From positions 704,907-768,906 of the forward strand of contig JBAZUP010000001.1 in NCBI GenBank assembly GCA_041661385.1: DNA of 64,000 nucleotides, read 5' to 3'. The DNA is from Patescibacteria group bacterium. Lineage in GTDB: Bacteria > Patescibacteriota > Patescibacteriia > Magasanikbacterales > GWA2-37-8. The position numbers were made by a program, and so were the translations under genes. Position 1 is the stretch's first letter. Each line of letters opens with the position of its first letter. Of this stretch, positions 16,899 to 61,079 are shown piece after piece. The notes under the pieces are model-generated. The model worked only from the letters and a program-made list of their open reading frames with translations, was not told the DNA's origin and made no database searches.

Positions 16899-17240
16899 CT
16901 ATTTAACTGATTTAACAGCTTCGTCTATTTCGCGGGCTAGTGTAGCTTTTGGGCGAAAGCCGATAAAGTCCTGAATAATCTTACCCTGATAAAATAATTT
17001 CATATTGGGAATGCTGGCGATTTGGTATTGAATAGCAAGCGGCATGTGTTCAGCTACCTCAGTATCTAGCTTGGCAATTTTTACTTTATCTTTTAATTCG
17101 TCTGATAGCTGGTCAAGAATCGGTGCCATCATTTGGCAGGGTCCGCACCAGGGTGCCCAAAAATCTACCAAAACAGGCAGGGTAGATTTTAATACCTCAG
17201 CTTCAAAAGTTTCGTGAGTTAGGTTTAATGCTTTAGCCAT
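16899..17240 (-). CDS. trxA: thioredoxin
   Basis: 113 aa with the canonical WCGPC active site (VDFWAPWCGPCQMMAPIL). Confidence 0.9.
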   Translation of the reverse strand: MAKALNLTHETFEAEVLKSTLPVLVDFWAPWCGPCQMMAPILDQLSDELKDKVKIAKLDTEVAEHMPLAIQYQIASIPNMKLFYQGKIIQDFIGFRPKATLAREIDEAVKSVK

Positions 17241-17241
17241 A

Positions 17242-17544
17242 TTATTTACATTTGCAAATTAATTTTTTTAAATCTTTAATGAATAAATTTTTGCTAAAAG
17301 AATAGCAGATTTTTTTGCCACTTCTTTTTGGTAGTAGTAATCCGGCCTTCGAAAGAGCTTGGAGATGGTGGGAGACTACCGCGATATGGAGTTTTAGTTC
17401 GCTGGCTATTTCTGAAACGCATATTTCCGGTTGGTTAAAAATTGCGCAAAGGATTTTTAATCGGTTGGCATCACCAACTAAAAGCAGTTGTTTTGCCAAA
17501 GTATCAAGCTGCTTGTTTTGTCTAATTGCGATTTTTGTAGTCAT
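17242..17544 (-). CDS. ArsR/SmtB family transcriptional regulator
   Basis: 100 aa winged-HTH (RLKILCAIF...ICVSEIASELKLHIAVVSHHLQALSKAGLL). Confidence 0.75.
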   Translation of the reverse strand: MTTKIAIRQNKQLDTLAKQLLLVGDANRLKILCAIFNQPEICVSEIASELKLHIAVVSHHLQALSKAGLLLPKRSGKKICYSFSKNLFIKDLKKLICKCK

Positions 17545-18594: not shown

Positions 18595-19830
18595 ATGAAA
18601 AAAATTGATTTTCTCATTATTGGCGGAGGGGCGGCCGGTACTACGGCCGCTGAAACTTTGCGTCAAAATAATAAAGACGCAAGTATTATTATTGTTTCCG
18701 ATGAACCGTACCGTTTTTATTCGAGAATTTTGATTTCTAAACCTTACTTTTTTTTGGAAAAAATTCCGTTTGAACAGGTGTGGTTGAAAACGGAAGCTTG
18801 GTATAGTGAAAATAAGATCGAGCTTTTGATGGGTCGTTCGGCAATTCATCTTGATCAAAAAAATAAAATTGTAAAATTAGACGACGGCACGGAAATTGTC
18901 TATGGTAAGTTGTTGCTCGCAGTCGGTGGTCATGCCCGCCGCTGGAATGTTTCGGGAGCTGATAAAAAAGGCGTGGGGTATCTGCGCAATTTGGAAGAAG
19001 CAAAAGAGATGATGAAAAATGTAAAAACCGCGAAACGCGCAATCGCGATTGGTTCCGGTTTTGTAAGTTTTGAGATTGCTGAAATTTTACGCAAGGCTGG
19101 TCTTGAAACTAGTATTGTCATGATGGAGCCGTATTATTGGTATCCGGTTTTTGATGAAGAGTTAGGAAAGTTTATTGAAAGAGCCATGGAAAAGGAAGGT
19201 GTAAAACTAATTCGCAAAGCGGAAGTTGCGGAAGTGCTTGGTAAAGATAAGGTAAAAGGCGTCTTATTAAAAGATGGATCTAAATTGGACTGCGAAGTGA
19301 TAGCGTGCGGTATTGGGTTAGATTATAACCTGGGTTGGGTGAAAGAGTCGGGAATTGAAACCAATCGCGGCATTTTAGCCAATGAGTATTTACAAACAAA
19401 TAATCCTGATATTTTTACCGCTGGGGATTGTTCTGAGTTTAATGATATAATTTTAAAAGAACGTATTCAGCTCGCGAATTGGGTAAATGCCCAAAGTCAG
19501 GGTACGGCGGCGGCATTAAACATGCTTGGAAAAAACGAGCCTTTCAAACTAGTATCATTTTATACCGCGCAGGCTTTTGGAATAAATATTTCCATGGTGG
19601 GAGATATTAAGGTCGGAGAGGGTAAGACGGTTATTTCTCGCGGCACACCGGAAGCAAATTCAATTGCCCGCATCATGATTAAGGATAATAAAATTGTCGG
19701 AGCAACGCTTTTAAATCGTACACCGGAATTATTTCAAATTTCAAAATTAATCGAGCAAAGGGTGGATGTTTCCGGACAGGAAAATAATCTTGCTGATGCA
19801 AATTTTAATCTAGCAACACTTATTTCATAA
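18595..19830 (+). CDS. FAD-dependent pyridine nucleotide-disulfide oxidoreductase (NAD(P)H:ferredoxin/rubredoxin reductase-like)
   Basis: GxGxxG FAD site (IIGGGAAGTTAA), a second dinucleotide fold (AIGSGFVSFEIA), and TAGDC near the C-terminal third. Confidence 0.65.
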   Translation: MKKIDFLIIGGGAAGTTAAETLRQNNKDASIIIVSDEPYRFYSRILISKPYFFLEKIPFEQVWLKTEAWYSENKIELLMGRSAIHLDQKNKIVKLDDGTEIVYGKLLLAVGGHARRWNVSGADKKGVGYLRNLEEAKEMMKNVKTAKRAIAIGSGFVSFEIAEILRKAGLETSIVMMEPYYWYPVFDEELGKFIERAMEKEGVKLIRKAEVAEVLGKDKVKGVLLKDGSKLDCEVIACGIGLDYNLGWVKESGIETNRGILANEYLQTNNPDIFTAGDCSEFNDIILKERIQLANWVNAQSQGTAAALNMLGKNEPFKLVSFYTAQAFGINISMVGDIKVGEGKTVISRGTPEANSIARIMIKDNKIVGATLLNRTPELFQISKLIEQRVDVSGQENNLADANFNLATLIS

Positions 19831-19834
19831 ATTT

Positions 19835-20311
19835 ATGCCCGAAGAAAGTAAAAAAATTAAAGTTGGCTGGTTTTCTTTTTCGTGTTGTGAAGATAATCTA
19901 GTAGTATTTACCGAGCTCATGAATGATCACTGGCAAGAATGGAAAAAACTTTTCGATTTTCGCCACGTCCGCGCCTTGCGTTCGGTAAATGTTTTAGATG
20001 AACTCGACATTGCTTTCATTGAAGGAGCGCTCGCTTCGCAAAAGCATGTTGATAAGGTTAAAGAAATTAGGGCCAAATCTAAAACGGTAGTCGCGGTTGG
20101 AGCTTGCGCAGTAACCGGCATGCCGGCCGGCCAACGCAATTATTTTTCCGAGGAACAAAAGAAAAATATTCAGTTTTTGGTGGATAAATTTGAAGCTTTG
20201 CCAAAAGTTTTGAAAGTTTCTGATGTGATTAAGGTAGACGCATCTGTCGGTGGCTGCCCCATGGATCCGAATAAATTTTTGGAGGCGGTTAAATTATTAG
20301 TTAAATCGTAA
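19835..20311 (+). CDS. [NiFe] hydrogenase small subunit, group 3 (NuoB/Oxidored_q6-like)
   Basis: 158 aa; proximal cluster Cys pattern (FSCCED...GACAVTGM...GGCPMDP). Confidence 0.7.
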   Translation: MPEESKKIKVGWFSFSCCEDNLVVFTELMNDHWQEWKKLFDFRHVRALRSVNVLDELDIAFIEGALASQKHVDKVKEIRAKSKTVVAVGACAVTGMPAGQRNYFSEEQKKNIQFLVDKFEALPKVLKVSDVIKVDASVGGCPMDPNKFLEAVKLLVKS

Positions 20312-20315
20312 TTTT

Positions 20316-21620
20316 ATGCATCAAGTTGATTTTGATTTAAATACCGGCGAACTGACTAAGGTTGAAGGTGCAGCAGAGCTTAATTTGCGAGTGCGAAATG
20401 GCAAAGTTGAATATGCCCATTTTGGCATTATTGAATATAAACGATTTTTTACTGAAGCGATGAAGGGCAAGCCGGTTGATGCGATTCCTCAGCTGGTCGC
20501 GCGTATTTGCGGCACTTGTTCAAACGCACACCTCCTTTGTTCAATTGAGGCCTGTGAACACGCTCTAGGAATCGTGCCGACCGAACAGACCAAATTTTTA
20601 CGACTACTTACCATGTACGGTCTAAATATCCGTGATCATGCGCTGCACCTGTATTTGTTCTGCATGCCCGATATTTTTGGTAAAGATTCATTCATGGATT
20701 TTGATGAAAATGATTCATTTCAAGATCAAATGCTTCATGATGCTTTTAATATAAAAGCGGTCGGTAATCAGCTAGCGATAATGGTCGCCGGCAGGTCTGT
20801 TCACGCTACTTACCCGGCGGTGGGTGGGTATTTGCATGTACCAACAAATAAAGAAGTTGAAGAAATAATTAAGAAATTGCGTTCGATTCGTCCGGCGGTA
20901 ATTAGGCTTATTAATTTTTTTGCGGAAAAAAATCCGTTTCACTTTGACCGGAAAACCGATTTTCTCGCTATGATTTCCGATCGTTGTGGTTTTATCGACG
21001 GAGTAATTAAATCGAGCACCGGTGAAGTAATTTCGAAAGAAAATTTTTCTAAACATCTCGAGCACACGGTACTTGAATACTCACAGGCTTCGGCTTATAA
21101 ATATAAGGGTCGACCATATATGGTCGGCGCACTTGGGCGCCTTAATATGGCGAGCGACCGATTGCATCCGAATACGAGAAAAGATGCCGGTTCAGCCATC
21201 AAACAATTTCCTTCTACCGACATATTTAAAAATAACCTTGCTCAGGCCATTGAAATTCTTCATGCAATTGATGATTCTATTGAAATTCTTACTAAGCGTG
21301 AGTTCAAGTTAGAACAGATTCCGGAAATTAAATACCGCGATGCGGTCGGAATTGGCGTCATTGAGGCGCCACGCGGACTTTTGTATCACAAAGTAACCGT
21401 TGGGGCAGATGGCCTTATAAAAGAAGGCGAAGTAGTGGTCCCAACTGGTCAGAACCAAACCAATATTGAAGAAGATATTACAACTTTGGTAAATGAAATG
21501 TTGCCCGACCACCCGTCGATGGAAAAAATAACCTTTGAAATTGAAAAACTTATTCGTGCCTATGACCCGTGTATGTCATGCGGCTCGCACTTCCTGAAGG
21601 TGAATGTAGATAAAGAGTAA
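20316..21620 (+). CDS. [NiFe] hydrogenase large (catalytic) subunit, group 3
   Basis: N-terminal L1 motif RICGTCSNAH and C-terminal L2 motif DPCMSCGSHF, the Ni-Fe ligating Cys pairs. 434 aa. Confidence 0.85.
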   Translation: MHQVDFDLNTGELTKVEGAAELNLRVRNGKVEYAHFGIIEYKRFFTEAMKGKPVDAIPQLVARICGTCSNAHLLCSIEACEHALGIVPTEQTKFLRLLTMYGLNIRDHALHLYLFCMPDIFGKDSFMDFDENDSFQDQMLHDAFNIKAVGNQLAIMVAGRSVHATYPAVGGYLHVPTNKEVEEIIKKLRSIRPAVIRLINFFAEKNPFHFDRKTDFLAMISDRCGFIDGVIKSSTGEVISKENFSKHLEHTVLEYSQASAYKYKGRPYMVGALGRLNMASDRLHPNTRKDAGSAIKQFPSTDIFKNNLAQAIEILHAIDDSIEILTKREFKLEQIPEIKYRDAVGIGVIEAPRGLLYHKVTVGADGLIKEGEVVVPTGQNQTNIEEDITTLVNEMLPDHPSMEKITFEIEKLIRAYDPCMSCGSHFLKVNVDKE

Positions 21621-21961: not shown

Positions 21962-22327
21962 TTATTTTAAATATTTTTTTAGAAAATTCATTGCTTCAGT
22001 TTCAAGTATATTTGGCGGCAGTCCGTAAATTTTAATATCTTTTAGTTTGCCGATTTTTTGCAACCAGCGTAAATTCGCGTAGGCATCAAAATCGTGCATG
22101 GTGACATTGGGCGCTCGTTTGAAAGTTAACAAACTATTAAATATCATCGGCGACTTGATCCCAACCACCGTATCGATAATATATAAATTTTCCGGGACTT
22201 CCCATTCTTCGTTTGGATCAACGGTGATAAAATCAAAATCTTTAAAATGATTTTTAAGTTCGGTAATTATTTTTAGCGGCACTGAATCCATTTTTAAATC
22301 CGGATTGCCAAATACGAATACCTTCAT
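21962..22327 (-). CDS. hydrogenase maturation endopeptidase (HycI/HoxW-like)
   Basis: 121 aa; VFVFGNPDLKMDSVP / IIDTVVG / TMHDFD...IKIYGLPPNI resemble the HycI pattern (GVGN..GDDG.G, IVDA, TH.M, IQP). Confidence 0.55.
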   Translation of the reverse strand: MKVFVFGNPDLKMDSVPLKIITELKNHFKDFDFITVDPNEEWEVPENLYIIDTVVGIKSPMIFNSLLTFKRAPNVTMHDFDAYANLRWLQKIGKLKDIKIYGLPPNILETEAMNFLKKYLK

Positions 22328-23088
22328 ATTCCTTGATTTAAAAAGCCGATATTTTGCAGTGTGTATTTTTTTAGTATGGAGGCTTGTTTTTCGGAAATCA
22401 CCTCACAAGGTACGCTCCAATGGAAGGTTAGAATGTCTCCTATTTTAAGTTGTTCGATTTCTTCAGTCGACTCAAGTTTTCTGGTGAGTTTTTTCTTCTC
22501 CGCTTTGCCAAGGATATATTTATCACCGATTTGAATGAGTGGTTCGCTTTCTACCGTTATCGTTGGGCCGGATACTTCCAAAACTTTTCCCCAACTAATT
22601 CGGCAAGAGTCCAGTGATTCAAGATTATACTCAGTCGACATATTGCCAGTTCCTTTCCAAACATTGAAAACATGAAAGGAGTGGTGAGGTACGGCATGCA
22701 GGCGAATTTTATTTTCTAGCTTAGAAAAAGATTTCAGACCATTTTTTTTCTTTAATTCATGCTCTTCTACTAAGTTGCGATACAGCGCCTGGCGCTCAAC
22801 TTTATCGAGCAGTTCATTTCCTATCCAATAAGCTTCTACCACCCGTTCATCAAAGGGGTCCTTTATGCCGCTGGCATGAGCAATTAGTTCTAGGTACGGG
22901 TAAAGGGTATTAAAAGCCGACAGAATTTTTTCAAGACCTGGATCAGTCGCGCCTTCTTTTATATAGGCAAGCAGTTCGGAATTGGCATCGGGTCCGCAAT
23001 AATGCAAGCGGTTCGGCCCAAAAGCATAACGACTACAGCGCAGGATGCCGTCCATTATTTTTTGCGGATAGTCTAGAGTAAGTACCAT
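22324..23088 (-). CDS. hypothetical protein, co-transcribed with the hydrogenase maturation protease
   Basis: 254 aa, no motif I can assign. Its stop overlaps the downstream start by 4 nt (ATGA). Confidence 0.4.
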   Translation of the reverse strand: MVLTLDYPQKIMDGILRCSRYAFGPNRLHYCGPDANSELLAYIKEGATDPGLEKILSAFNTLYPYLELIAHASGIKDPFDERVVEAYWIGNELLDKVERQALYRNLVEEHELKKKNGLKSFSKLENKIRLHAVPHHSFHVFNVWKGTGNMSTEYNLESLDSCRISWGKVLEVSGPTITVESEPLIQIGDKYILGKAEKKKLTRKLESTEEIEQLKIGDILTFHWSVPCEVISEKQASILKKYTLQNIGFLNQGI

Positions 23089-23148
23089 ATAGCCCGACTA
23101 CTATAACACATTTTTATAAAAGTGAAAGCCACGCGCCGGAGCGCGTGG

Positions 23149-23589
23149 CTAGTTTTCCTCCTTTTCTATCAACACTCGGAAGTGCAGATAGAATCTATCT
23201 CCTGGTGCTACGGCGTGGCCGTAAATGTTGATGACCTTGAAGGCGTCGCCCTTGTCATCGGTCATAATGACGATGATTGGGCTGATTACCTTGAGGGTTT
23301 TGCCGAGAATTACCCGACAGTCGCCCTTGTGGCCATGGTGGTGCCGCCAGAAATCGGCGACAGTCGCTAGTGACCAACGGTCAGCGCCGATTTTGTCGGC
23401 ATATTCCCGTAGCCGGCGAACGGCATGGGGGAAGCAGTAGCGGAGCAATTGGGTGGTGGGTTCTCCACCATTCTTGACCAGCATACAAAGCCGGTCTAAG
23501 TGTTCACGGTCAATGTGACCGCGCATGTGCCTCCCTTCAGCACAGGGGAATGAATACAGCAGGAACAGTCTCTTGCCAGAAATTTCCAT
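23149..23589 (-). CDS. hypothetical protein in a composition-atypical (about 55% GC) islet next to tRNA-Gly
   Basis: 146 aa ORF with GGAGG 11 nt upstream and a plausible promoter. Local GC is well above the window background. His-rich segment WRHHHGHKGD. Confidence 0.4.
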   Translation of the reverse strand: MEISGKRLFLLYSFPCAEGRHMRGHIDREHLDRLCMLVKNGGEPTTQLLRYCFPHAVRRLREYADKIGADRWSLATVADFWRHHHGHKGDCRVILGKTLKVISPIIVIMTDDKGDAFKVINIYGHAVAPGDRFYLHFRVLIEKEEN

Positions 23590-23835
23590 TGTGGTTGTTT
23601 CCTCCCGAGGACTTTTACATCCTATAATATATTGCGTTTTGGTGCAAATTTAAACAACACGAACGAGCGAGCGAGGGAGTCTCACTCGCTCACTTCGTTC
23701 GCTCTCGCGGAAACCTTCGGGTTTCCGCGGGCCTTCCTCAGCAAGAAAGAAACTACGTTTCTTTCCATTTTCCTGTTCGCCTCCCGGTGTACGGTATAAT
23801 AAAATTACCCCCATAAATGGGAGTAATTTTATTAG

Positions 23836-23907
23836 AGCGGGCGACGGGAGTCGAACCCGTGTCACCAGTTTGGAAAACTGGGATAATAGCCGTTATATGA
23901 CGCCCGC
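23836..23907 (-). tRNA. tRNA-Gly (anticodon TCC)
   Basis: Minus-strand cloverleaf: acceptor GCGGGCG/CGCCCGC, anticodon stem CCAGT/ACTGG with loop TTTCCAA (anticodon UCC), T-arm CGGGT-TCGACTC-CCGTC. CCA is not encoded. Followed on the minus strand by a hairpin plus T-run terminator. Confidence 0.85.
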
Positions 23908-23958
23908 GAGGAGTGTCGCGATGAACAAAATTTATTTTGTTCAGCATGACCGACGAGC

Positions 23959-24067
23959 GGCTTCATATATCTCGCGATATATGATTCCGCGTCTCAATCA
24001 ATTTTTCATCTTTTCATTTCCGACGTAGGGCTTCATATATCTCGCGATATATGATTGCCCGCGTCTC
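23959..24067. repeat. two tandem copies (70-bp period) of a 38-bp repeat with an imperfect palindromic core upstream of tRNA-Gly(TCC)
   Basis: ggcttcatatatctcgcgatatatgatt(c/g)cc(c)gcgtctc at 23959-23997 and 24029-24067; core ATATAT-CTCGCG-ATATAT. Confidence 0.6.
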
Positions 24068-24162
24068 TTTCAATGTCGTTAAGTATATGAAAAAAAACTT
24101 AATTAGTCAAGATTATTGGGTTTTAACATTAAATTGAGCGGAAGCTGATTTTATGATAAAAT

Positions 24163-24906
24163 ATGGGTATGAAAATCACTTTTTTAGGTACAAATGGCTG
24201 GTATGATAGCGACACCGGCAATACCCCATCAATATTAATTGATACGAAGGATCATTATATAGTATTAGATGCTGGTTTTGGAATTGCGGATTTAAATACT
24301 TATTTAGTAGAAGATAAGCCGCTTTTTTTGTTTTTGAGTCATTTTCATCTTGATCACACTTGTGGTCTGCACACCCTCGGTAAACTTAAAGTAAAAGAAC
24401 TGACTATATTTGGGCAGAAAACACTGAAAAAATATTTAAAAATTCTTATTAATCATCCTTTTACAGCAACTTTTGATGAACTTGGATATAAAGTAAATTT
24501 GGTAGAACTGGCGCCTGGTAAACACGAGTTGCCGTTTGAGGTGTTTTGTTTGCCGCTTCAACATGTTGATCCGGCCATGGGCTACCGTTTTACTTTAGAA
24601 GGAAAAACAATTACCTATTGCTCAGATACTTCAATTTGTCCAAATGATTTGGAGTTATCACGCGATGTTGATCTTCTTATTCATGAATGTGCCTTTTTAC
24701 CTGGTCATAGCACAGCCTGGGGCCACACCAACCCTGAAGGAGCGGCCGGCATGGCAAAAGAAGCAAAAGTTAAAAAAATGATTCTTACTCATCTTGGAGC
24801 CGATCATTATAATACAATGGAAATGCGAAAAATTGCCGAAACTACCGCCCAAACAATTTTTCCTGAAACCTTGGTAGCGTATGATGGCTTAACGCTAGAG
24901 ATTTAG
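24163..24906 (+). CDS. MBL-fold metallo-hydrolase (RNase Z/beta-lactamase superfamily)
   Basis: HxHxDH motif LSHFHLDHTCGL plus downstream His/Asp ligands. An extended -10 (TGaTAAAAT, 24054-24062 on the local line, equal to 24154-24162) abuts the first ATG, so transcription probably begins at the second ATG (24169, MKITFLG...) as a leaderless mRNA. Confidence 0.7.
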   Translation: MGMKITFLGTNGWYDSDTGNTPSILIDTKDHYIVLDAGFGIADLNTYLVEDKPLFLFLSHFHLDHTCGLHTLGKLKVKELTIFGQKTLKKYLKILINHPFTATFDELGYKVNLVELAPGKHELPFEVFCLPLQHVDPAMGYRFTLEGKTITYCSDTSICPNDLELSRDVDLLIHECAFLPGHSTAWGHTNPEGAAGMAKEAKVKKMILTHLGADHYNTMEMRKIAETTAQTIFPETLVAYDGLTLEI

Positions 24907-32583: not shown

Positions 32584-32657
32584 TGCGGTAGTAGTTCAGT
32601 TGGCTAGAACGTCTCCTTGCCAAGGAGAAGGTCGCCGGTTCGAATCCGGTCTACCGC
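32584..32657 (+). tRNA. tRNA-Gly (anticodon GCC)
   Basis: Acceptor GCGGTAG/CTACCGC, D-arm AGTTCAGTTGGCTAGAAC, anticodon stem TCTCC/GGAGA with loop TTGCCAA, T-arm CCGGTTCGAATCCGG. Confidence 0.9.
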
Positions 32658-32701
32658 TCAGAGAAGCTTCATAATATTGAGGCTTCAACAATTCATATAT
32701 A

Positions 32702-32773
32702 GCGGGGTAGAGCAGCCCGGCAGCTCGCAGCGCTCATAACGCTGAGGTCGCGGGTTCAAATCCCGCCCCCGCA
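32702..32773 (+). tRNA. tRNA-Met (anticodon CAT; elongator Met or lysidine-modified Ile2 cannot be distinguished)
   Basis: Acceptor GCGGGGT/CCCCGC (G1-C72, so not an initiator), anticodon stem CAGCG/CGCTG with loop CTCATAA, T-arm GCGGGTTCAAATCCCGC. Confidence 0.85.
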
Positions 32774-32939
32774 ACAAATTAAACACAGCCCTATCAAGGG
32801 TTGTGTTTAATTTTGTAGGTCGAGGGATTTGAACGGGAAAGGGAGAAAACGGAAGTTTTCTCCTGCTGAGGAAAGTTCACGAAAACCCGAACGGTTTTCG
32901 TGGGAGCGTAGCGACTCTTATCCCGCCCCCGCAACAAAT
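32760..32939 (+). repeat. 20-bp direct repeat: tRNA-Met 3' end (atcccgcccccgcaacaaat) duplicated 160 bp downstream
   Basis: Exact copies at 32760-32779 and 32920-32939 flank 140 bp of hairpin-rich DNA. This is the att-like signature of a tRNA-targeted integration, now reduced to a remnant. Confidence 0.6.
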
Positions 32940-32940
32940 A

Positions 32941-32967
32941 AAAAACCCTCCGCTTGGAGGGTTTTTT
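32941..32967. terminator. bidirectional rho-independent terminator
   Basis: aaaaaccctccgc-ttg-gagggtttttt. Confidence 0.7.
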
Positions 32968-33016
32968 ATTAAGTTTAAATTCAATTCTTCGACAGCTCCG
33001 TTTTATAATAATTTTC

Positions 33017-59565: not shown

Positions 59566-59737
59566 GTGTCGTTGTTGAATCGATTGATTTTGAATGAAAA
59601 AGGCTTAAATAAGCGAATTTTATAGTTCATTAAAACTTAATTGTTACCGAAAATGTGAGTGGCAAAAAGTGGCTAATATTGGCTGTTTTTTGCCGCCCAT
59701 AAGGACGGTACAACCAAAAAACAAAGAGGTTCACGAA

Positions 59738-60972
59738 ATGACCACCGGAAACATCGGAACTCCCGCCCTCAAGCTGGTGACCACGTCTTCGGAGGTCAAG
59801 CCCTCCGACGAGCAGCTCTTCGCAATCGCCGAGGAAGAGCTGGGAAGCAAGCCCGACCCCGAGATTCTCGCTCAGCCTGGCGTCCGCGTCATGATGATCG
59901 AGATCTGGATGGAGCGGCAGGCCGAGCTCGAGGAGCAGAAGCGCGCCGCCGACAAGCTCGAGGCCGACCAGAAGGAGAAGGAGCGTCAGCGCGTGCTCTC
60001 CGAGCAGGCGAACAAGCTCCGCGAGCGCTCGAACAAGCGCTTCAAGCCCGGCGCCCCCAAGGGCCCGGTCGTCTTCCTCTCGAATGAGGACATCCAGAAG
60101 GCCGTGCAGAACACGGTTCTCGAGGAGGCGAAGAAGTCGCGTCCGGACCTCCTGCCCGACTGGGTCAGGGAGAAGGATGATGTGGCCGCCATCCGCGGCT
60201 ACCTCTGCGGTGAGCGGCGCAACATCATGGAGTACATGCAGGCAAACCCCGCCGAGATGAAGTTCGTCACCTGGGCCACCAAGGCCATCGCCGACATCCA
60301 GGCCGAAATCGTCTTCGTGACGAAGCTCGGCTTCCGTGCCTTCAACAAGGCCGACCTCACCAAGGAGGGGCATTACTGCCCGACGCCGAAGTACCAGCAG
60401 TATATCCTGCCGAGGCTGAAGGCGAGCAGCTTCTATCAGAAGCTGACGAGCCAGGTCGGCGGCACCAACACCGACTCCGCCAAGTCGGTGGAGAAGGAGG
60501 TGCCGGTCGACCACATCGCCGCTGCGAGGAAGCGGACCGAACAGCTCCTCGCGGAGGAGAAGATCCGCCTGGACATCGGAGGTCGTCTGGTCAAAGCCGA
60601 CTGCGACGAGCAGTCGGTGGTGAGCCGGGCCGACCGGATCATGAAGAAGTTCCAGGGCACCGCCGTGGAGCGTCTCACCCAGGCCGCGGTTGGTCAGGGT
60701 GTGCTCGCGAAGACGAGCTCGGATCCGCAGCTGTGCGAGCAGGCGATGCAGAGCGCGGCTCTGTACTCGAAGGCGGCCGATATCGGCACCGACGAGTTCG
60801 CGGCGCTCATCGACGAGCGCATCGCGAACGCCCACTCCGCGGCGGACAAGCCGTACGCCGTGGTGGAGCGGCCCCTCTCTCCACCAACCAGCAGAAGAAG
60901 CAGTCCGAGGCTGCGCGCAGGGCTCGGAACGCGAAGAAGAGCGGTGAGAAGAAGAACAAGAAGAAGCAGTAG
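59738..60972 (+). CDS. high-GC horizontally acquired gene, hypothetical protein with a coiled-coil and charged N-terminus and a Lys-rich C-terminus; apparent -1 frameshift near 60868-60880
   Basis: About 62% GC with GC3 near 90%, against a roughly 38% GC host. SD AAGAGG sits 7 nt before the ATG. Frame 2 (59738 onward) holds the G/C-ending codon bias until the C-run at 60872-60875. From there the bias continues in the neighbouring frame, which ends NQQKKQSEAARRARNAKKSGEKKNKKKQ* at 60972. The in-frame read-through to 61054 uses atypical AGA/AGT codons. The 475-aa antisense ORF (59630-61057) is a GC-composition artefact. Confidence 0.55.
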
Positions 60973-61012
60973 AGTTAGCGACCAACAGGTCGCAAAACTC
61001 TCGCAACAACCA

Positions 61013-61049
61013 GACAGCCAAGGCAATCCCTTGGCTGTCTTTCGTTTTT
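61013..61049 (+). terminator. rho-independent terminator after the GC-rich gene
   Basis: gacagccaagg-caatc-ccttggctgtc followed by tttcgttttt. Confidence 0.7.
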
Positions 61050-61050
61050 G

Positions 61051-61079
61051 TTGACAAATAAAAGATAATCTCATAAAAT
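61051..61079 (+). promoter_or_regulatory. sigma70-like promoter for the ileS leader
   Basis: TTGACA-17 nt-TAAAAT; about 205-nt leader before the ileS ATG. Confidence 0.55.

Follow-up and report, generated by a model that had tools for sequence, protein, structure and literature searches.

Background

The classic marks of integrase-mediated insertion at tRNA genes are direct repeats of the tRNA 3' end, the occurrence of filled and empty sites in relatives, and tandem copies; CIMEs are the cis-mobilizable remnants which keep only the att sites. The tRNA flanks described here resemble attL/attR-bounded insertions and CIMEs in several ways: a direct repeat which runs from the T-loop to the 3' end bounds an insert downstream of an intact tRNA, filled and empty sites as well as tandem copies exist, and an inverted repeat surrounds a 7-nt centre. 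They differ from them in featuring no recombinase in the tested neighbouring ORFs, no full-length relative and no phage match, in having inserts of just 75-190 bp with a conserved core and hairpins that keep their structure, in carrying an extra antisense copy of the T-arm, and in that the copies look old and maintained.

A second group of relevant systems comprises tRNA external transcribed spacers, such as the 3'ETS of Escherichia coli leuZ, which acts as an sRNA sponge. The likeness lies in a conserved, structured leader or trailer distinct from the tRNA itself; unlike the leuZ 3'ETS, the modules reported here consist of sense and antisense copies of the ends of their own tRNA, vary in copy number and place the trailer beyond a terminator-like hairpin. 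Moreover, they recall tRNA-like minihelices. In the trailer hairpin P3, a helix of 9 bp, the acceptor 3' strand with the discriminator base and C74 serves as the 3' strand; the pairs G1:C72, C2:G71 and G3:C70 are retained, and part of the T-loop forms the cap. The leader hairpin HP1 has the acceptor 5' strand. In contrast to the tRNA-like domain of tmRNA, viral tRNA-like structures and mascRNA, the modules have no T-arm stack, encoded CCA or messenger-like frame, and they do not match the tRNA, tmRNA or tRNA-like Rfam models.

Short tandem hairpin units with sense and antisense copies of a target are also reminiscent of TIGR and CRISPR arrays and of MITE and REP elements, and the described TIGR systems likewise occur in bacteria of the Candidate Phyla Radiation. 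TIGR arrays are composed of 5-15 units of 36 nt, with two alternating 8-12-nt repeats and 9-nt spacers, and adjoin a Tas (Nop-domain) gene (PMC12045711). A TIGR or CRISPR array was rejected for the present locus, where the HP1 units measure 53-70 nt, occur in one to three copies and have no Tas neighbour; from MITEs the modules differ in lacking near-identical dispersed copies.

The last comparison concerns a protein of 146 residues encoded beside the tRNA. Its C-terminal 55 residues form the same small OB barrel as HypC/HupF (PF01455), with a conserved Cys opening the first strand and a terminal GD...H...EK motif as further common features, and its gene lies by a [NiFe]-hydrogenase cluster, next to a DUF6390 gene whose product has the same barrel. 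In HypC/HupF, however, the essential Cys is residue 2, the first after removal of Met, whereas that of the 146-aa protein is internal (C91) and stands behind a 90-residue helical domain, and the Pfam match is absent.

The DNA analysed here, referred to as the window, is a stretch of 64,000 nt from Patescibacteria group bacterium GCA_041661385.1 (contig JBAZUP010000001.1, 704,907-768,906). A previous sequence-only reading had interpreted the surroundings of its tRNA-Gly gene as one composition-atypical islet, possibly a decayed or miniature integrated element or a regulatory array for the tRNA. All of the features it listed are present, at the positions given or a few bases off. The region consists of three separate, vertically conserved things and not of one islet. 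The tRNA-Gly gene is conserved and is flanked by hairpin modules made from copies of its own ends.

Results

The GC-richer gene is a core gene of the lineage

The 146-aa gene occupies 23149..23589 on the minus strand. Its GC content, previously put at about 55%, is slightly lower at 53.1%, in comparison to 41.6% for the window, and falls within the top 3.1% of 440-bp windows; the maximum over 200-bp windows is 58%. The ribosome-binding site and promoter noticed earlier were both recovered: GGGAGG precedes the ATG by 11 nt, and motif scoring places a promoter-like site, TTTAAA-17-TATATT, at 23626..23654 (minus strand), overlapped by TTTGCA-16-TATAGG as identified by eye. A similar TTTGCA-16-TATAGT is found before the ortholog at the related locus L002. 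At the other end, a GC-rich hairpin AGCCACGCGC-N4-GCGCGTGGCT (23127..23150), terminator-like on both strands, overlaps the stop codon, and the L002 ortholog is followed by a counterpart, CCACGC-N-GCGTGG with a T-run.

Composition and position together could suggest that all of 23150-24070 is a single acquired or decayed islet with this ORF as cargo: the ORF adjoins a tRNA gene, its GC exceeds that of the window by the margin given above, and its third-position GC reaches 63% as opposed to 29-38% in the neighbours. The orthologs speak against it. The DUF6390 and hydrogenase neighbourhood is kept in L002 and L014, with the tRNA at a distance of 1.5-3.5 kb, and the gene is 7-13 points richer in GC than its surroundings in 6/6 orthologous loci, with host GC of 40-50%. 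In addition, the protein family comprises at least 381 clusters, and the ORF lies outside the repeat-bounded segment, because a pseudo tRNA 3' end sits between it and the tRNA. We regard a single islet as hardly credible; ortholog synteny and GC, the two checks which the sequence-only reading had itself named beforehand, refute it, and they also contradict the suggestion that the ORF is an insertion. The absence from relatives that would be expected of an insert does not apply to the ORF, which is present in them. Foreign composition was rejected, as the GC excess recurs across all orthologs, and recent horizontal transfer is ruled out by synteny and ortholog GC. The high GC is a property of the gene family and not an indication of recent transfer.

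The gene is a core gene in this Patescibacteria (Magasanikbacteria-like) lineage, paired with the DUF6390 gene and adjoining the [NiFe]-hydrogenase cluster. At L014 the ortholog adjoins DUF6390 directly, and at L002 one gene separates the two. The protein had been said to belong to no recognisable family, which holds for Pfam, NCBIfam and PHROGs; sequence searches of these and of the PDB gave no name. A profile search, on the other hand, revealed a large unnamed conserved family, with 198 of the at least 381 representative sequence clusters at E<=1e-10. An AF2 model (pLDDT 91) consists of a five-helix N-terminal domain with a Cys/His motif and the C-terminal HypC-like OB barrel. In Foldseek the HypC chains 3vyt_A and 3vys_A match with a target-normalised TM-score of 0.86-0.88 and an rmsd of 1.4, and the matches of the barrel (3vyt_A, 3vys_A, 2z1c) superpose as a five-strand OB barrel at rmsd 1.2-1.6 across 50-55 columns. 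The conserved Cys of the family, residue 91, is located within the motif HHGHxGDCRV. The HypC/HupF profile gave no hit for the window protein and a weak one (E 0.0016) for 1/48 family members. A metal-handling or chaperone-type protein is the probable role. A strict link to hydrogenase was discarded for the family as a whole, given a distant member in an unrelated neighbourhood devoid of hydrogenase genes, and the hydrogenase association is local only. A literature search on DUF6390 and on HypC in Patescibacteria returned no relevant finding.

Leader hairpins copy the 5' end of tRNA-Gly

The tRNA-Gly gene (anticodon TCC; 23835..23907, minus strand) was detected by ARAGORN and by Rfam (57.4 bits), and its CCA is not encoded. 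Its sequence is identical in L002, L007, L009, L011 and L017. The conserved divergent neighbour is an RNase Z-like gene, and a sigma factor gene is also among the neighbours. Upstream, a promoter-like site TTGACT-17-TATACT (24082..24110, minus strand; motif score 10/12) opens a leader with the order conserved promoter, one to three copies of HP1, AT-rich hairpin and tRNA; the promoter hexamers and their spacing are identical in L002, L013, L014/15 and L017/18.

In the window, HP1 occurs twice on the minus strand. Copy A (24022..24065) has the 5' arm GCGGGCAATCATATAT, resembling tRNA nt 1-15, a GCGA loop and a complementary 3' arm, and folds at -22.6 kcal/mol (z -4.9). Copy B (23949..23998) follows 70 nt downstream: its 51-nt unit folds at -21.1 kcal/mol (z -3.3), and the 54-nt stretch that defines its coordinates at -22.2 kcal/mol. 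The direct repeats with a 70-nt period described earlier are thus these two units, sharing an exact 28-nt core (23959-23986 and 24029-24056) and 47 nt at 85% identity, a match reached by chance in 0/100 shuffles. The 5' arm reproduces approximately nt 1-15 of the tRNA, the 3' arm is the corresponding antisense, and the repeat starts exactly at tRNA position +1; in L014 the 5' arm matches the variant of the tRNA acceptor found there. The sequence-only reading had missed that the repeat units open with a copy of the tRNA 5' end. Between copy B and the tRNA, the palindrome it had reported is real and located at 23922..23943 (minus strand), forming the AT-rich hairpin HP2, TGAACAAAAT-AA-ATTTTGTTCA (z -3.4), which is followed by CACTCCTC and then by the tRNA. 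A hairpin of different sequence takes the position of HP2 in L002 (a weak fold), L005, L011, L014 and L017.

HP1 was found in 11 copies, all of them between the promoter and tRNA-Gly(TCC), at the window, L002, L005, L011, L013, L014/15 and L017/18; five further related genomes have one to three copies downstream of this promoter, and none is present at six loci which share the tRNA. The leader unit is empty in L009 and filled in L011, whose upstream flanks are nearly identical, L009 showing the start of an unrelated gene. No HP1 was located away from tRNA-Gly(TCC) in 229 kb (the window plus the loci), nor any HP1-like copy upstream of the other two tRNAs of the window. This specificity to tRNA-Gly(UCC) disposes of the notion that the repeats are a general tRNA promoter element. 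The proposal of a regulatory array for the tRNA was borne out in part: the 70-bp repeats form a conserved hairpin array which in relatives stands between a conserved promoter and the tRNA, and the proposal fits only these repeats.

Across HP1, pairing covers 91.6% of cells. In 8/11 copies the loop is GCGA, of the GNRA type and invariably in the tRNA-sense orientation, and folding also favours the sense over the antisense strand (summed -226 vs -201 kcal/mol, with 21 vs 6 G-U pairs). As the units are downstream of the conserved tRNA promoter, they would be transcribed. Only two pairs are changed on both sides among the 11 copies, in a comparison with weak shuffle controls, and sequence conservation of the inner stem exceeds covariation; on both of these grounds a DNA-level role of HP1 is conceivable.

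Such a role would be that of operators, in which a dimeric regulator of the divergent RNase Z-like and tRNA promoters would bind to the palindromes TCATATAT-N-ATATATGA. The strong conservation of the 9+9 palindrome across genomes would suit it, as would the divergent intergenic location with one to three copies at 53-70-bp spacing. We nevertheless consider it unlikely. The units are located downstream of the predicted tRNA promoter, their asymmetric GCGA centre has one orientation in 8/11 copies, G-U pairs are tolerated on the sense strand only, the 5' arm tracks the sequence of the tRNA 5' end, and HP1 also accompanies tRNA-Gly genes which have no RNase Z-like neighbour, e.g. L011. Furthermore, the half-site spacing is different by 2 bp in L002 and the stems reach into an imperfect outer helix; the 2-nt difference in stem length favours a hairpin, which tolerates it, over a dimeric operator, which would not.

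A trailer module ends in a copy of the tRNA 3' end

Directly 3' of the tRNA lies the terminator-like hairpin T1, AAAATTACTCCC-ATTTAT-GGGGGTAATTTT followed by ATTATA (23801..23830, minus strand), which corresponds to one of the small hairpins reported earlier (aaaattac...gtaatttt). A T-run hairpin follows the tRNA at every related tRNA-Gly locus, with a different sequence each time. Beyond it is the trailer module, or TM, of about 130 nt (23663..23789, minus strand), whose hairpin block has a folding z-score of -5.4. It starts with the antisense of the tRNA T-loop and T-stem (23775-23787, the left end of the module), continues with hairpin P1 (23745-23765), the motif CTTGCTGAGGAAGG and hairpin P2 (23706-23729), and closes with P3 (23662-23694). 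The perfect hairpins gaaagaaac-tac-gtttctttc and gcggaaacc-ttcg-ggtttccgc of the sequence-only reading are P1 and P2 respectively, and its inverted-repeat block GAGCGAGCGAGG/CTCGCTC is P3, the 3' arm of which is a pseudo tRNA 3' end. This arm belongs to a direct repeat from the T-loop to C74 (23665..23681, minus strand), which reads GACTCCC-TCGCTCGCTC against GACTCCCGTCGCCCGCTC in the tRNA, with one substitution and one deletion; fuzzy search found it to be the sole near-copy of this kind in the window besides the tRNA itself. It had also gone unnoticed before that a copy of the tRNA 3' end closes the hairpin block.

With nhmmer, homologous copies were recovered at E 1e-24 to 7e-32; the window copy at tRNA-Gly scores 7.5e-28 and belongs to the alignment of the model itself. 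Seven copies stand behind two different tRNAs, with ends which match the target tRNA and a common core. Whether the cognate tRNA is Gly or Met, and whether its acceptor type is GCGGGCG or GCGGGTA, is reflected in the pseudo-ends. In older copies a degenerate version of the acceptor 5' strand pairs with the direct repeat, giving an acceptor-like minihelix: P3 pairs AGCGAGUGA with UCGCUCGCU in the window, L017 has UCGCCCGCU like the tRNA itself, and the acceptor-type pairs are kept in 3/4 Gly copies. In L016, window-Met and L007-Met, the copies where the match is best, the left motif forms 10-13 contiguous pairs with the cognate T-arm. No two copies share the sequence of P1, which nevertheless is always a hairpin of 7-10 bp. 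Nine of the ten P2 pairs are changed on both sides in one to three of six copies, and in the MAFFT alignment the two P2 classes are one column out of register. Sense and antisense strands of the module fold about equally well, and the P2 loop of the window is CGAA in the tRNA sense and the very stable UUCG in antisense.

Lacking a separate promoter and preceded by a terminator-like hairpin, the module would be transcribed by read-through only. Two further candidates were examined and dropped: a closing helix between its left and right ends was no better than shuffled controls, and a small ORF measures 28 aa in the window and 11 aa in L017 but is missing from the Met copy, a lack of conservation that speaks against coding.

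The abundance of hairpins exceeds chance, with six terminator-like ones where 1.4 are expected. It might be given a simpler explanation, namely that they are mere stacked terminators or insulators and drift palindromes beside a strongly transcribed tRNA, the likeness to tRNA ends being chance or a functionless leftover of duplication. Several of them score as terminator-like, A-tracts and T-tracts flank T1, and a T-rich tail follows P3. Three observations are at odds with it and make it, in our judgement, very unlikely: the unpaired motifs CTGCTGAGGAA and GCGAACGAAGT and the sequence of P2 are conserved between genomes despite an identity of about 62-66% in the neighbouring proteins, the architecture is repeated at two tRNAs with ends fitted to each, and exact copies of tRNA ends, of 14-18 nt, are present in several genomes.

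A second copy at tRNA-Met and filled and empty sites

A paralogous trailer module is located behind tRNA-Met(CAT) on the plus strand of the window (32815..32935; nhmmer E 8e-7), with an antisense T-arm GAGGGATTTGAAC, P1, CTGCTGAGGAAAG and P2, bounded by the direct repeat ATCCCGCCCCCGCAAC (32920-32935) and with terminator hairpins on either side. Its ortholog is present in L007, and these two are more alike than the two paralogs of the window, which are about 70-75% alike, indicating old, maintained elements that have not been mobile recently. At the Gly locus, L019 is empty and L016 filled, with the common downstream flank AACTTCC; the module is absent from L002, L014 and L007-Gly. Two modules stand in tandem in L017, with 650 bp and a 106-aa ORF between them, and L020 features a pseudo 3' end from a different tRNA-Gly allele. 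In three copies the direct repeat extends 8-10 nt past the tRNA end.

The idea of a miniature integrated element therefore holds in part, as regards the hairpins between the tRNA and the ORF. They form a discrete module of about 130-190 bp which is delimited by a repeat of the tRNA 3' end and has a second copy at tRNA-Met, and whose sites are filled in some relatives and empty in others. "Decayed" is the wrong word, since the module is old and its internal hairpins seem structurally constrained. The two alternatives offered earlier, an integrated element and a regulatory array, each fit a different piece, i.e. the trailer hairpins and the 70-bp repeats.

Pursued further, this idea is the main rival to the reading we favour: the trailer modules, and possibly the leader units, would be miniature non-autonomous integrative elements or CIME-type attL-attR remnants, inserted by a tyrosine recombinase at tRNA ends. 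On this view the att identity block would correspond to the direct repeat and the recombinase core site to P3, with its 9-bp inverted repeat flanking GACTCCC, and the element itself would have brought the first terminator. A repeat from the T-loop to the tRNA end, with the extension seen in three copies, is reportedly the usual geometry of tRNA att sites; the shared flank of L019 and L016, the tandem of L017 and the end of a different allele in L020 also agree with integration, and P3 is shaped like a 9-7-9 core site.

The protein and phage searches, on the contrary, lend it no support. As had been stated before, no integrase remains: Pfam, NCBIfam and PHROGs searches, run on the ORFs to either side of the tRNA in the window and in L002, L014, L016 and L017, found neither integrase nor transposase, and no mobile-element protein was seen among the tested ORFs adjoining any copy. 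Pattern scans of viral contigs and BLAST against phage genomes matched only the tRNA, and a phage or plasmid-borne origin of the modules was rejected on these searches. Moreover, 6/7 copies are equally minimal in size, which random decay would not produce; the hairpins have changed in sequence but not in structure, for which double-stranded att arms would have no reason; the greater likeness of orthologs implies that the copies are old; and the leader repeat opens exactly at tRNA +1. An integrative origin is in our view a possibility of a tentative kind.

Neither the leader hairpin nor the trailer module matches Rfam 15, in which the tRNAs alone exceed the threshold in the window, and permissive scans of the window, L016 and L017 returned nothing credible. 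tmRNA, permuted tmRNA, RNase P RNA, SRP RNA and riboswitch leaders were discarded as they have no Rfam support. A limited literature search, covering miniature elements at tRNA genes and downstream tRNA-like minihelices, found no description of either module.

Discussion

With about even credence, we favour the reading in which the flanks are transcribed modules of the tRNA, originating by duplicative recombination at tRNA ends and with a putative function. HP1 and the trailer module would be transcribed together with the tRNA as external spacers and, as RNAs, may mimic the acceptor arm or compete with it. In this way the CCA-less pre-tRNA could be affected in its stability, its termination or the maturation of its 5' and 3' ends, presumably by way of RNase P and RNase Z; an RNase Z-like gene is the conserved divergent neighbour. 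The modules would have arisen, and sometimes been gained or lost, through duplicative recombination at tRNA ends, which would account for the direct repeats as well as for the filled and empty sites. In its full form the proposal is that HP1 and the trailer module represent an undescribed class of tRNA-flank RNAs in Patescibacteria, acceptor-arm mimics gating the RNase P and RNase Z maturation or the quality control of CCA-less pre-tRNAs and spreading via recombination which copies the target end; in this specific form we put it forward with considerable reserve.

Conclusions

For annotation, the GC-richer gene is not foreign and can be assigned to a large, unnamed family of HypC-like proteins, located in this lineage by DUF6390 and a hydrogenase cluster. 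For RNA biology, two conserved modules made of partial sense and antisense copies of tRNA ends stand without an Rfam family. If they are transcribed, they would constitute a compact natural system of tRNA-end mimicry in organisms whose genomes are very small and whose set of RNases is reduced; should they be miniature site-specific elements, they would document tRNA gene targeting in the Candidate Phyla Radiation without a resident integrase. Under either reading, their defined motifs can be searched for across the Patescibacteria.

A conserved GC-rich gene beside tRNA-Gly(TCC)

The tRNA-Gly(TCC) gene (23835-23907, minus strand) is separated by a spacer of 245 bp from an ORF of 146 aa (23149-23589, minus strand) and by an intergenic region of 255 bp from a divergent gene with a metallo-beta-lactamase fold (24163-24906, plus strand). 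RNase Z models are the best NCBIfam matches of the latter, its homologs are labelled RNase Z or RNase BN in source records, and many relatives likewise keep this RNase Z/BN-like gene next to tRNA-Gly(TCC). Position 24169 is more likely to be its true start, because the homologs measure 245 aa. The comparison loci carrying the same tRNA-Gly derive from Candidatus Magasanikbacteria assemblies. CCA is encoded in none of the three tRNA genes of the window (23835-23907, 32585-32659 and 32701-32775), all of which end at N73-C74.

A sequence-only reading had combined the GC-richer ORF, the hairpins and the repeats into one integrated islet or, alternatively, a regulatory array for the tRNA. All the features it listed are present, and repeats and hairpins exceed chance: no match to the 28-nt repeat core is expected, while the two repeat units fold with z-scores of -4.9 and -3.3 and the hairpin block with one of -5.4. 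Membership of the ORF in such an islet was rejected on the basis of synteny, composition and family size. With a GC content of 53.1% against 41.6% for the window, the ORF falls in the top 3% among windows of the same size, and two other regions are more extreme. The gene exceeds its host locus by 7-13 GC points in all six cases available, namely the window and the orthologs in L001-L004 and L014 (gene/locus 0.53/0.42, 0.51/0.40, 0.59/0.50, 0.61/0.48, 0.51/0.42 and 0.51/0.45), so that the composition belongs to the gene itself; in the window its third-position GC is 0.63 vs 0.29-0.38 in its neighbours. A far stronger composition outlier lies at 59630-61057 (about 1.4 kb, GC up to 68%), where two full-length ORFs of 461 aa (plus strand) and 475 aa (minus strand) overlap, neither with a Pfam family.

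A word-indexed search returned only three homologs of the protein, and a full profile search retrieved 381 representative clusters whose proteins are 140-150 aa long, with 198 clusters at E<=1e-10. The homolog in L002 (47% identity) sits in the order RNase Z-like gene, tRNA-Gly(TCC), three extra genes, 146-aa homolog, EamA, DUF6390, 121-aa gene and [NiFe]-hydrogenase; in L014, as in the window, the homolog directly adjoins DUF6390. The gene is thus conserved and syntenic, not an insert. In the window it forms with DUF6390 and the 121-aa gene a co-oriented set (21962-23589) converging on a [NiFe]-hydrogenase cluster (18595-21620; reductase, small subunit and large subunit), and the 121-aa gene weakly matches a hydrogenase maturation protease (E 0.024). 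A travelling pair of ArsR-type HTH and thioredoxin genes was also observed (window 16899-17544, L002 9266-9911, L017 2939-3584), located between tRNA-Gly and the 146-aa homolog in L002, downstream of the trailer hairpin modules in L017, and about 6 kb off in the window.

The AlphaFold model of the 146-aa protein (pLDDT 91) shows five helices and, after them, a barrel of five strands, which begins at the conserved motif HHGHxGDCRV and matches HypC and the PAN OB domain. The neighbouring DUF6390 protein has the same HypC-like barrel (SCRISWGKVLEV; hhalign E 8e-5, probability 61%). Membership in HypC was rejected, the Cys being internal and the Pfam profile giving no match, and one distant family member is located away from any hydrogenase. 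At most, a metal-handling or chaperone-like role may be proposed.

Leader hairpins upstream of tRNA-Gly(TCC)

In the sense of the tRNA, the leader opens with a promoter-like site (TTGACT-17-TATACT, 24110-24082), followed by two repeat units, each folding as a long imperfect hairpin, HP1. The 5' arm of HP1, GCGGGC(AA)TCATATAT, resembles the start of tRNA-Gly, GCGGGCGTCATATAA; the copy is exact over 15 nt in L002 and 14 nt in L005, and in L014 the variant GCGGGTA appears both in the tRNA and in the nearest HP1, whose 3' arm compensates. After HP1 come an AT-rich hairpin that differs in sequence per genome, the motif CACTC(C/A/G)(T/C)(C/T) and the tRNA. The number of HP1 copies is one in L002, L005 and L011, at least one in L013, two in the window and in L017/18, and three in L014/15. 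Every copy lies between this promoter and tRNA-Gly(TCC), and the 229 kb searched contain none elsewhere. Six loci with the same tRNA miss the array, and L009 (without it) and L011 (with it) have upstream gene and promoter in common. The constant order of promoter, HP1 and tRNA favours the regulatory alternative for these repeats.

Several features favour reading HP1 as a putative hairpin in RNA from the tRNA strand: 8 of the 11 copies have a GCGA loop, in one orientation, G-U pairs number 21 sense vs 6 antisense, the sense strand has the lower energy, and the stem in L002 is 2 nt shorter. Weak covariation counts against this reading, as the inner stem is mostly invariant.

Trailer modules downstream of tRNA genes

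A fuzzy search located a near-copy of the last 18 nt of tRNA-Gly at 23665-23681, and comparable pseudo 3' ends follow tRNA-Gly in L016, L017/18 (two) and L020/21. The sequence between tRNA and pseudo-end is homologous in the window, L016 and L017, and its nhmmer profile also matched 32824-32908, directly behind tRNA-Met(CAT), and the equivalent place in L007. This second module of the window (within 32776-32970) follows a tRNA-Gly(GCC)-tRNA-Met operon with a terminator hairpin on each side, so that both tRNA transcription units carry one.

From the tRNA onwards, the shared order is a terminator-like hairpin; an antisense copy of the T-loop and T-stem of that tRNA (GGGAGTCGAAC-like for Gly, GGGATTTGAAC for Met), ending in GAAC in all copies; hairpin P1, unlike in each copy; a CUGCUGAGGAA-like motif; hairpin P2, in two sequence classes connected by changes on both sides; a motif starting AGCGA(C/G); and a direct repeat of the tRNA from T-loop to C74 (16-22 nt, running 8-10 nt further in three copies). 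A degenerate acceptor 5' strand, AGCGAGUGA, pairs with this repeat in the Gly copies of the window and L016 and in the second of L017, three of the four, and yields a predicted acceptor-like minihelix of 9 bp, P3. In the three copies that pair best, L016, window-Met and L007-Met, 10-13 contiguous pairs form between the left motif and the T-arm of the real tRNA; pairing between the left motif and the right end of the module is no stronger than in shuffled controls. Both strands fold about equally well, and wobble pairs and GGAA loops lean to the tRNA sense. The trailer stretch 23762-23786 resembles, at 72% over 25 nt, the segment 23583-23607 (CGGGAGGAAACAACCACAATGGAAA) where the 146-aa gene has its ribosome-binding site and start, probably by chance since both contain GGGAGG.

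That trailer modules are miniature integrase-type elements is the main rival explanation, possible though rather doubtful. It accounts for the direct repeats, for empty sites (empty L019 and filled L016 have a common flank after the tRNA end) and for tandem copies, as in L017 (3643-4648), where two modules about 650 bp apart follow a single tRNA-Gly. The tRNA 3'-end repeat and the empty and filled sites speak for the miniature element of the sequence-only reading as regards the trailer; the ORF does not fit it. However, apparently structure-conserving hairpins and uniform minimal size are left unaccounted for, as is the age of the copies, which must be old because the two Met orthologs are more similar than the two paralogs within the window. 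Tests of the neighbouring ORFs revealed no recombinase, in agreement with the earlier remark that no integrase remains.

In the gap between the L017 modules, the opposite strand carries an ORF of 106 aa that matches no family. L020 (776-941) and L021 (1420-1585) carry another tRNA-Gly(TCC) allele. Two hairpins (76 nt) come after it, and then a pseudo 3' end that is identical to the L014 and L016 allele, a mismatch which suggests tRNA gene replacement or recombination.

Neither module matched Rfam, viral contigs and phage genomes matched the tRNA alone, and literature searches found no description of either. TIGR arrays, known from Candidate Phyla Radiation bacteria, were rejected as an identity given their different unit anatomy (PMC12045711).

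Conclusions

Both the leader and the trailer modules are conserved; they differ in copy number, are found in some relatives and missing from others, and contain copies of tRNA ends that follow the cognate tRNA. Rather than integrase-type elements, we favour modules transcribed together with the tRNA, which would act as RNA, mimicking the acceptor arm or competing with it in the maturation of CCA-less pre-tRNA, and which may have arisen through duplicative recombination at tRNA ends. In a small sample, these two undescribed modules show an unusual, clear-cut design and lead to a hypothesis that can be tested.
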